A stretch of DNA of 42,138 nucleotides from Planctomycetota bacterium (GTDB lineage Bacteria; Planctomycetota; B15-G4; JADJEK01), in assembly GCA_044225365.1 (NCBI GenBank), contig JBGAIQ010000047.1, forward strand, positions 1 to 42,138, given 5' to 3'. Each line of letters opens with the position of its first letter. Positions within the stretch are counted from its first letter, which is position 1. Below are positions 3,165-4,701 of this stretch, piece after piece. Under the pieces are notes generated by a model. The model saw only the letters and a program-made list of their open reading frames with translations, searched no databases and was not told the origin of the DNA. A program made the translations under genes and the position numbers.

Positions 3165-3614
3165 TCAGCCTCGCTGGTTCACCATGATCTGCCGCCGTTG
3201 AGCCGTGCGGAGCCGCGAGATCGACTTCCTCCCAAGTGCGACGACAACAACCTCCACGCCGAGATCCTTGGCGACCTCGGCCAGCCACGATTTTCCGCGC
3301 AGGCACGCCGCGGCGGCCTCGTCGGTGAAGCAGATCAGCTTGCGATGCCGACGACCGATCGACTTCTCCACTGCGACTAGTTTCAGGATGTCCTTGGCAA
3401 TCTTGGCTGGTTGCCCACCTTTGAGCCTTCCCATGTGCGAGTACACCCCGCATAGAACGCGCGCCTTGATGTCGGCGCCGTCGATGTGCACGGACGAACC
3501 ATTCTGGAGCTGTGTCTTCGAAGGTTTCAACACCCAACCGTATTGCGTGGCGAGAAGCTCGAGTGCTTCGGTTTCCGTGAGCCTCTGGATCGAGGAGTCC
3601 GACTTGTGCTTCAT
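3165..3614 (-). CDS. Hypothetical protein, possible restriction-endonuclease-like (PD-(D/E)XK-like) fold
   Basis: The ATG overlaps the upstream stop (ATGA, 3611-3614). 149 aa, with pattern Q..E helix, VHIDG, LCGVYSH, GQ..KI..D.LKL. The fold call is an inference. Confidence 0.65.
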   Translation of the reverse strand: MKHKSDSSIQRLTETEALELLATQYGWVLKPSKTQLQNGSSVHIDGADIKARVLCGVYSHMGRLKGGQPAKIAKDILKLVAVEKSIGRRHRKLICFTDEAAAACLRGKSWLAEVAKDLGVEVVVVALGRKSISRLRTAQRRQIMVNQRG

Positions 3615-4237
3615 CGATGTTTGAAAATCCGTGCCGGTTGATCTTCCTTGCTCCGACAGCGGGAGGGGTTGCATTTCGGCGTGGAGTTGGATTCGAACGA
3701 CGCCGGCGCGCACGGTTCGCCGTGGATCCCCTTCTCGAACTCGTACCGCAATCGCGCCGCGAACTCCTCGACGAACTCCGGCCTGAAATTCGTGCAAAAC
3801 CCCGGTCCGCGCTTCTCGAGCGGATGGTCGAGATGCCGCCACTCGATCCCCTCGATCGGCGGCGCGTTCCTGCCGAAGTACCAAAACTCGGTGGACACCA
3901 GCGCCCATCGTTCCGGCACGATGGGGTCTCCCGCCGCGAACCGCGCGTCGGCACGCTCGCGGAACCGCCGATCGCGAACGTACTGCTGGAGCGGCAGCTT
4001 CTCCGTCACCTTCATCGCGTAGACCATCCGCCCGTGACCCGCGCTCTTCTTGTCGCTTCCGCCGGTGCCGACGATCCAGTCGCCGGGCTGCGCGAGTTCG
4101 ACGACGTTCGGTCGTCCCGACTTGCTGTACTTGCAGACCGCGAGCGTGCAGTAACGGCCCGCCGCGCACGGAGCGAAGCCGACGTCGTGATGGACGACGT
4201 AGGAGAAGAGTCGCGGCGATCGGGTCTTCGTGCTCAC
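3611..4237 (-). CDS. Nmad2-like (nucleotide modification associated domain 2) protein
   Basis: Signature FSYVV.HD.GFAP.....CTLA.CK...GDWIVGTG...VYAMKVTEKL...Y..D.RF and LVSTEFWYFG. GTG start overlaps the upstream stop (GTGA). Confidence 0.75.
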   Translation of the reverse strand: MSTKTRSPRLFSYVVHHDVGFAPCAAGRYCTLAVCKYSKSGRPNVVELAQPGDWIVGTGGSDKKSAGHGRMVYAMKVTEKLPLQQYVRDRRFRERADARFAAGDPIVPERWALVSTEFWYFGRNAPPIEGIEWRHLDHPLEKRGPGFCTNFRPEFVEEFAARLRYEFEKGIHGEPCAPASFESNSTPKCNPSRCRSKEDQPARIFKHR

Positions 4238-4701
4238 GCTCTCGCTCCGATCTCCTCAACCGTCACGTCCACGCCCGCCTCCTCCGCCGTCGCGACTTCC
4301 TTCTTCTCGAGCACTAGCCTCGCGACCCTCGCGTCGTCGCACGCGAACAGTACGCCGCTGACGCCCTCCTCCTTCGCCTGCACGCGCCTCGCGAGGAACA
4401 ATGTGTCGAGCACGGGCTTCGCGAGGTTGTCCAGGTCGGAGCCGACGATCCTCGCCGCAGTCATCCTGAACACGATCTCCACGGACAGCCAGGGCAGCTT
4501 CGAGTTGCACGCGATCGGCGACGGGACCTTCGTCCGCGCCGCGTCGGCGATCGCTCTGCGCCACGCCCACTCCGGCGGGCCGTTGCCCCACGGGCTCGGC
4601 GAGAGGCCGCGGACGGAGAACTCAACGAGCGCCCGACACGAGTCGTTGCGAATCGATTGCGACTCGGGGCAGGCCGTGCCGATCACTACCTCATTCGTCA
4701 T
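4234..4701 (-). CDS. RusA-like endonuclease (Holliday junction resolvase family)
   Basis: DLDNLAK.VLD.L ... DD..V catalytic pattern, an upstream W...I helix and a C-terminal GV.V.V.E strand. Start codon is uncertain. Confidence 0.75.
   Translation of the reverse strand: MTNEVVIGTACPESQSIRNDSCRALVEFSVRGLSPSPWGNGPPEWAWRRAIADAARTKVPSPIACNSKLPWLSVEIVFRMTAARIVGSDLDNLAKPVLDTLFLARRVQAKEEGVSGVLFACDDARVARLVLEKKEVATAEEAGVDVTVEEIGARA

Follow-up and report, generated by a model that had tools for sequence, protein, structure and literature searches.

Nmad2 (PF18753) is a catalogued, biochemically uncharacterised protein family that was recently added to the components of anti-phage defence through the system DS-4 and DefensePredictor (PMC13092281). 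According to that paper and its supplements, Nmad2 is encoded by gene 5 of the cloned and phage-tested E. coli system NTTI, that is, the validated system DS-4, whose other components are thymidylate synthase, an adenylate/deoxynucleoside monophosphate (dNMP) kinase, a 5-hydroxymethyldeoxyuridine (5-hmdU) DNA kinase and a TIR protein; a second Nmad2 is given there as a 'Predicted novel defense gene', and 'nucleotide modification associated domain' is named among the predicted defence domains. Here we analyse a three-gene operon with an Nmad2 gene in its middle, located at positions 3165-4701 of a 42,138-nt stretch of DNA from a Planctomycetota bacterium (contig JBGAIQ010000047.1, assembly GCA_044225365.1; hereafter the window, meaning the whole stretch analysed), which an earlier note on the bare sequence had put forward as a candidate defence operon. 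With a probability of roughly 40%, we read this operon as a rare variant of Nmad2-containing defence modules, in which Nmad2 would function jointly with two nucleases, sense an invader and confer a defence phenotype. The features on which this reading turns are the following:

4234..4701, minus strand: gene A, divergent RusA-family nuclease-like protein (ATG start, 155 aa)
3611..4237, minus strand: gene B, Nmad2 protein (GTG start, 208 aa)
3165..3614, minus strand: gene C, small stand-alone protein with a predicted PD-(D/E)xK fold (ATG start, 149 aa)
3447..3449, minus strand: codon GGG for Gly56 of gene C, at the site of the near-invariant Glu of the family in the third strand

The trio shares with DS-4/NTTI an Nmad2 protein; it is not a member of that system, none of the four other components having been found among the 37 open reading frames (ORFs) of positions 1-27291. 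The effector of DS-4 is a TIR protein rather than nucleases, and the nucleotide-modification enzymes listed for it are missing from the window. With the Nmad2-Nmad3 modules (PF18753 + PF18754) the trio shares the Nmad2 family itself and a tight, overlapping operon with a partner gene, whereas the Nmad2 gene of the window is flanked by the RusA-like and PD-(D/E)xK genes and has no adjacent Nmad3. Type IV (modification-dependent) restriction enzymes with PUA-like readers (VcaM4I, the McrB N-terminal domain, PD-T4-3) likewise combine a PUA-like fold with nuclease domains; such readers also turn up in the structural comparison of the Nmad2 model (6yex at Z 6.6, 6p0g at Z 5.6, 9u75 at Z 3.2), and elsewhere Nmad2 genes abut GmrSD and Mrr genes (see below). 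In the trio, by contrast, the reader and the nucleases would be separate small proteins, the nucleases being of the RusA type and minimal PD-(D/E)xK rather than HNH or Mrr, and PADLOC finds nothing in their sequences that resembles a known type IV enzyme.

Published work already counts Nmad2 among defence components, and each family of the trio is known or of known fold. The combination of Nmad2, a RusA-like protein and a small PD-(D/E)xK protein corresponds to no system named by PADLOC, and no report of it was found in the literature searched; nor was any RusA-based anti-phage defence system found there, as judged on titles and abstract openings.

Gene structure and protein families of the trio

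The two 4-nt start/stop overlaps described in the earlier note are present in the plus-strand letters: tcac at 4234-4237 reads GTGA on the coding strand where genes A and B overlap, and tcat at 3611-3614 reads ATGA at the junction of genes B and C. The GTG start of gene B falls into the same alignment column as the start of its closest relative, and GGAG lies 8-11 nt 5' of it. Given that the GC content at third codon positions (GC3) in the called frames (0.90 for gene A, 0.83 for gene B and 0.76 for gene C) matches the range of the housekeeping genes of the window (0.74-0.89), all three are real coding genes with host-like composition.

The earlier note had also named the three proteins as RusA-like, Nmad2-like and similar to restriction endonucleases, and these calls hold up. 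Gene B matches the Pfam family Nmad2 (PF18753) with 110.3 bits and E 1.2e-31, far above the cut-off of 26.1, and a search of the whole genome with PF18753 likewise returned an Nmad2 match above cut-off. In the AlphaFold2 (AF2) model of gene B (pLDDT 82.3, pTM 0.78), the resemblance to PUA/EVE-type readers that the earlier note had seen in the sequence recurs as structural similarity over the whole domain. The best VIA-align match over the Foldseek list is the YTH domain 7njc (Z 8.3, root-mean-square deviation (rmsd) 3.9, 137 of 149 residues aligned), and against representative structures the same tool gave Z 7.0 for ASCH (5guq), 6.6 for VcaM4I (6yex), 5.6 for McrB-N (6p0g) and 5.4 for THYN1 (5j3e). 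All top 22 rows of a wide structural search are YTH, ASCH, EVE, McrB-N, VcaM4I or the DrmA N-terminus (Z 4.2-7.4); the best Foldseek rows all belong to ASCH, YTH, EVE/THYN1, McrB-N and VcaM4I, but with E only 0.1-0.9, and Foldseek gave no match at E<=1e-3. Neither the Nmad2 profile nor the Nmad3 profile has a match among PDB sequence profiles. Because the same families recur across the structural searches despite middling Z scores, the model supports a PUA-like (YTH/ASCH/EVE-like) fold for Nmad2. Among 32 Nmad2 relatives, 28 columns are invariant, including H17, D18, C30, C35, D53, W54, E141 and K142, and H68, R148, H172 and C176 are near-invariant; W54, Y13, Y73, H17, D18, E141 and K142 are, on this pattern, candidate residues of a modified-base pocket only, and C30, C35, H172 and C176 might make up a Cys/His metal site.

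Gene A falls under the cut-off of the Pfam family RusA (PF05866; 16 bits against 22.8, E 0.019), and PF05866 gave no match at E<=0.001 in the whole genome, with 3 of 14 control genomes matched. Other comparisons point to RusA: PHROG 34, 'RusA-like Holliday junction resolvase', is matched at E 7.3e-5, and 23 of the 30 ESM Atlas clusters nearest to gene A carry RusA. An hhalign comparison of the 16-sequence gene A profile with seven Pfam-verified RusA proteins gave a probability of 98.3% and E 2.7e-14 over 100 columns that take in the DLDN and DD motifs, a score that is biased upward by the retrieval of these seven proteins through their common DLDNLAKP pattern. The DLDN...K...DD motif of gene A is intact (D89, D91, N92, K95, D122/D123); the DLDNLAKPVLDTLF motif and D123 are invariant across the 16 relatives, and in the alignment with verified RusA proteins D89, D91 and D122/D123 fall on their invariant D-L-D-N and DD. 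This Asp triad is regarded as catalytic in the literature on E. coli RusA. Among PDB sequence profiles, the gene A profile reaches RusA 1q8r only at E 0.88, below two chance matches. Judged by these profiles, gene A is a divergent member of the RusA family whose acidic motif is intact, but which has a 13-residue insert and an N-terminus of its own. It resembles RusA of lambdoid prophages (PF05866; 1q8r), a dimeric enzyme that resolves Holliday junctions, in the motif, in the profile homology and in size, and differs from it in the insert, which precedes the DD motif, in the N-terminus, in its position outside any prophage and in its sub-cut-off Pfam score; bona fide phage RusA proteins align by tblastn only to the C-terminal part of gene A (residues 88-152 at four loci, 68-153 at a fifth).

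For gene C, no family was found in Pfam, NCBIfam, PADLOC or PHROGs at E<=0.1, and its profile gave only chance-level matches among PDB sequence profiles (E 0.16 or worse). The AF2 model built from 98 sequences (pLDDT 94.7, pTM 0.88) shows the topology helix, three strands, helix, strand. By VIA-align its nearest structures are the XisH-like 2okf (Z 9.5, rmsd 3.0, 115 residues aligned), AF1548 (1y88, Z 8.6) and the NucS C-terminal domain (2vld, Z 8.3), after which come CARF-associated nucleases, restriction enzymes and toxins with nuclease activity. The remaining rows among the 50 structural matches listed are, as far as recognised, what we take to be nucleases of the PD-(D/E)xK fold. Foldseek lists Cdn1, NucS, EcoT38I and AF1548 at E 1.4e-3 to 6e-3 with probabilities up to 1.00, and a viral structure library returned 'Restriction endonuclease' at E 4e-4. 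The model thus allows gene C to be assigned confidently to the PD-(D/E)xK restriction-endonuclease-like fold, of which it contains the core. It has the same fold, with good coverage, as 2okf, AF1548 and NucS, and is set apart from them by the lack of any sequence-level match, by a conserved residue set of its own and, in the window copy, by the loss of E56.

That conserved set comprises S7, D45, E56, Q68, K71, D75 and K78. In the columns of the 98 sequences, D45 is kept in 97 and K71 in all 98; from their position in the model, D45, E56 and K71 would be the catalytic residues. Position 56 is E in 96 of the 98 sequences and D in one, and the only G is that of the window, which therefore lacks a complete acidic/lysine set (D in strand 2, D/E in strand 3, K); in the alignment A2 all 9 other sequences, including the closest relative at 81% identity, have E there. 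The bases of Gly56 are confirmed by a contig with 0 differences over 2800-3491, which, coming from the probable source sample, is not independent support. The sequence thus suggests that gene C of the window has lost its catalytic acid and is probably inactive.

Loss of catalytic residues is common for toxic nucleases. We considered the trio as an addiction or toxin-antitoxin-like selfish cassette, in which one nuclease would be a toxin restrained by a partner and the Gly56 allele would mark a detoxified survivor. The genes are small, overlapping and sporadic, the folds near gene C include toxins of the CdiA-CT type and effectors of the type VI secretion system, and some Nmad2 loci in other genomes adjoin HepT, HipA or MqsA-like genes. 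We nevertheless consider a selfish cassette rather improbable: Pfam, NCBIfam, PADLOC and PHROGs detect no known toxin or antitoxin family in the trio, which consists of three genes rather than two, the closest relative still has Glu56, and among the 37 ORFs of 1-27291 Pfam identifies no gene of a mobile element.

In a profile search of 1.84 billion representatives, the gene C family comprises 1448 clusters at E<=1e-3, 214 of them at E<=1e-30, and most members are stand-alone proteins of about 150 aa. Among 11 longer forms scanned, one has a GIY-YIG domain, one a uracil-DNA-glycosylase (UDG) domain, two a DUF7669 domain and one a weak helix-turn-helix match, and six are without a Pfam family (one of these with a sub-threshold Peptidase_M4 match); in P0264, P0289, P0173 and P0257 the gene C domain is fused behind GIY-YIG, UDG and DUF7669 domains. 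In four of five IMG/VR contigs (L125-L129; e.g. L126:1840-6238), a gene C relative lies antisense between genes for a Prim-Pol/PriCT primase and a ResIII/DEAD helicase, where it looks like a free-standing nuclease gene inserted into a replication module.

Partners and defence neighbours of Nmad2 in other genomes

The usual partner of Nmad2 is Nmad3 (PF18754), which follows Nmad2 and is directly adjacent to it in 31 of 57 genome loci; in a sample of the phylum it was found at 7 of 15 Nmad2 loci, including two genomes of the family to which the window belongs. The whole genome of the window, which is 94.29% complete, has no match to PF18754. A sequence relationship between Nmad2 and Nmad3 was considered and ruled out by hhalign (probability 0.6%). 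The neighbours of Nmad2 were identified with two Pfam scans, one of the same-strand neighbours at the 26 loci without Nmad3 (45 proteins, four of which are extended Nmad2 ORFs) and one, covering 56 of the 57 loci, of 126 ORFs that are 180 aa or longer and no more than about 1.3 kb away, and with PADLOC on 41 ORFs (9 from the flanks of the window operon, 30 named and unnamed neighbours at Nmad2 loci and 2 at gene C loci). Defence-related and other telling neighbours are as follows:

L018, positions 2-7690 (Planctomycetota metagenome-assembled genome (MAG)): DrmA, DrmB, DrmC, a 104-aa ORF, Nmad2 and an unnamed ORF of 378 aa, all in the same orientation and overlapping at their ends
L004: GmrSD/HEC-06 gene, beginning 7 nt after Nmad2
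L009: Mrr gene (mREase_IV), ending 38 nt before Nmad2
L023: Shedu SduA and a HipA-like kinase
L035: AbiJ and a HEPN protein
L007: type I methyltransferase after an Nmad2-Nmad3 pair
L026: HepT-like RNase
L058: 5-hmdU DNA kinase and MazG_C

Nmad2 of L018 is embedded in a DISARM-type operon; L058 presents the hypermodification context after which the family was named. Defence proteins named by PADLOC were found at 6 of the 57 Nmad2 loci, and at about 11 if Pfam names are counted. In a tree of Nmad2 from 44 of the 57 loci and five proteins (built without rows shorter than 170 aa or weaker than 1e-50), the window-type Nmad2 sequences form a clade (100/99) within an 11-row group that lacks Nmad3 and includes the GmrSD-linked and the Shedu-adjacent Nmad2 genes.

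A broader reading is conceivable, in which Nmad2, as a separate PUA-like protein, would sense phage DNA or nucleotides that are hypermodified and would work with swappable effectors, mostly Nmad3, elsewhere GmrSD, Mrr or the PLD nuclease of DISARM, and in the clade of the window a RusA-type junction nuclease together with a minimal PD-(D/E)xK protein. Although we regard it as doubtful, this generalisation would, if true, establish a class of type IV-like defence with a modular 'reader plus swappable nuclease' design and make a relative of Holliday-junction resolvases an immune effector on branched phage replication intermediates.

The unnamed neighbours at Nmad2 loci without Nmad3 have no common family, apart from one pair, and are unlike genes A and C and Nmad3. 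The pair is an unnamed 250-aa protein that precedes Nmad2 in L010:106-855 and L041:5239-5991 (pairwise E 3e-104), two loci without Nmad3, and it may be an alternative partner. ADP-ribosylglycohydrolase genes flank the Nmad2-Nmad3 pairs at L016:4751-5797 and L020:2140-3429, both in Planctomycetota.

Proposed function, conservation of the trio and alternatives

In the model that we favour, in which we infer a physical coupling of the three proteins, the ligand, the nuclease targets and the defence phenotype, Nmad2 would be a PUA-like binder of, or possibly an enzyme acting on, a modified base, nucleotide or nucleic acid of the invader, translationally coupled to the RusA-type nuclease encoded upstream and to the minimal PD-(D/E)xK nuclease encoded downstream. 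Both nucleases would cut DNA, the target of the RusA-like protein being DNA that is branched or replicating. With the conserved Glu of the PD-(D/E)xK partner gone, the module is probably partly disabled in the genome of the window, or would depend on the RusA-like protein alone, and the trio is possibly decaying. If the trio works as one unit, it would follow that Nmad2 can be coupled to nucleases and not just to Nmad3, TIR or nucleotide-modifying enzymes, a RusA-type junction nuclease would acquire a first defence role, none having been found in the literature searched, and a compact three-protein set would become available for probing what Nmad2 binds.

The trio appears to be retained in close kin of its host. 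For each of the three genes, the closest relative (80% for A, 78% for B, 81% for C) is assigned to an NCBI contig of 13,897 nt, and a Logan contig of 2,794 nt is given for further relatives of A (54%) and of B (59%); it is very likely that A, B and C lie together on the former and A and B on the latter. Contigs of a run from another study span C, B and the two flanking regions, each piece showing 1-14 differences, and gene A with the sequence upstream of it is covered in a third run, where 510 nt contain 45 differences. Given that contigs of other runs cover its parts, the locus is present in close kin from at least three studies. One Nmad2 candidate listed at 75% identity (L059) proved to be merely a degenerate Nmad2 fragment and was rejected.

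Several observations weigh against a joint defence function. The putative adjacency of the relatives on the 13,897-nt and 2,794-nt contigs is deduced from equal recorded sizes, and no gene C relative is recorded on the Logan contig. The earlier note had made co-occurrence of the three genes in other genomes a touchstone of its proposal, and this appears to hold for very close relatives; elsewhere, a relative of A or C is present at 0 of 72 other Nmad2 loci (0/57 genome loci, by tblastn and profile, and 0/15 loci of the phylum sample), and Nmad2, C or Nmad3 at 0 of 60 metagenome loci with gene A relatives. Gene C relatives occur in three genomes that have neither A nor B. The trio is accordingly not a widespread conserved unit. 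The replacement of Glu56 in the window copy of gene C counts on the same side, as do the structural Z scores of Nmad2, which do not exceed 8.3 and are middling by the note of the tool, and the Foldseek E values of 0.1 or worse. The count of 6 of 57 Nmad2 loci with defence neighbours was obtained without a background control, from ORFs picked by hand after the Pfam scans, and many Nmad2 loci sit among housekeeping genes. The window itself offers no defence setting: PADLOC found no known defence gene among the 9 flanking ORFs (E<=0.001), and the window has no defence-island context. Such a setting is met elsewhere, where Nmad2 lies beside or inside DISARM, GmrSD, Mrr, Shedu and AbiJ loci, and in the validated DS-4, of which it is a component. 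No integrase, phage gene or modification enzyme was detected by Pfam in the 37 ORFs of 1-27291, as the earlier note had observed for prophage context and modifying enzymes; PADLOC-DB 2.0 returned 0 families for proteins A, B and C at E<=1, so that the combination is still no named system, as the note had likewise supposed. No RNA or expression records were found for the locus.

One alternative is juxtaposition without joint function, the trio then consisting of a RusA-like remnant, a solitary Nmad2 gene and a solitary PD-(D/E)xK gene, small and independently mobile, brought together in a variable region, inherited as a block by close kin and each acting or decaying alone. Each family occurs elsewhere in other contexts without the other two: gene C relatives are solitary in genomes and, in four of five viral contigs, antisense between Prim-Pol and helicase genes, and no conserved neighbour accompanies gene A relatives across 60 loci; the Glu56Gly change is compatible with relaxed selection. 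Set against this are the two successive 4-nt start/stop overlaps on one strand, the retention of the block in the closest relative, whose proteins are about 80% identical, and of A and B at 54-59%, the intact catalytic motif of gene A together with all invariant residues of gene B, and the host-like GC3, and we consider mere juxtaposition unlikely. Should juxtaposition or decay be all there is to the trio, the finding would be an ordinary one.

The other alternative is a housekeeping or repair role on modified or damaged nucleic acid, without any invader, in which Nmad2 would be an enzyme, like some ASCH-type proteins, and the nucleases would process the resulting DNA structures. Many invariant polar residues of Nmad2 (H17, D18, D53, E141 and K142, with the near-invariant H68 and R148) would suit an active site, and its structural neighbours include the ASCH enzymes ZmASCH and YqfB; the nearest folds of gene C include the repair nuclease NucS, relatives of gene C are fused to UDG and GIY-YIG domains, and several Nmad2 loci lie among housekeeping genes, e.g. 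RecR/DnaX in L033 and L034. The distribution of the genes is, however, sporadic: in 400 other genomes sampled from the phylum, Nmad2 was found in 14 (15 loci), gene C in 4 and gene A in 0, and gene C was found in 0 of 41 other genomes of the order. Given that a repair function is expected to be more widely kept, and with Nmad2 embedded in DISARM and adjoining type IV restriction genes, a repair role seems quite unlikely to us.

A phage origin of the trio was also considered and found unsupported, given that the viral collection contains Nmad2 at only 2 loci, gene C at 5 loci and no full-length relatives of gene A.

Independently of the trio, there is annotation value in the recognition of gene C as a member of a large unnamed PD-(D/E)xK family without a Pfam model and in the YTH/ASCH/EVE-like fold that is predicted for Nmad2.

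Setting of the operon in the window

Two further features delimit the surroundings of the operon:

4702..4785: divergent intergenic region of 84 bp between gene A and an FG-GAP gene (ATG at 4786), presumed from its position alone to hold the operon promoter
9557-9631: tRNA-Asn gene

No sigma-70-like consensus site was found in 4702..4785; a promoter scan of 2700-5000 gave a single promoter-like site, which lies within gene C, and a terminator scan of the same interval gave none. To the right of the tRNA-Asn gene, from 9691, Pfam identifies the housekeeping genes accD, rpe, pgk, gap and tilS, and to its left, in 1-9500, the FG-GAP protein is the sole match to a Pfam family. No direct repeats of the tRNA-Asn end were found in 1-9700, the only repeats being those within the FG-GAP gene and one 16-nt pair; the contig begins at base 1, and an island border could fall outside the window.

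In a Sedimentisphaerales MAG (L055:5956-8108), a solitary Nmad2 gene directly adjoins accD and rpe, both of which are also present about 5 kb from the operon of the window (3611-11508), a parallel that may reflect a shared insertion hot spot or coincidence. Finally, the secreted-protein genes on either side of the operon (1-2052 and 4786-6420), which the earlier note had taken to be unrelated, do have something in common, namely a Cys-rich C-terminal domain of about 145 aa, with 35% identity and E 2e-21, that belongs to no Pfam family.

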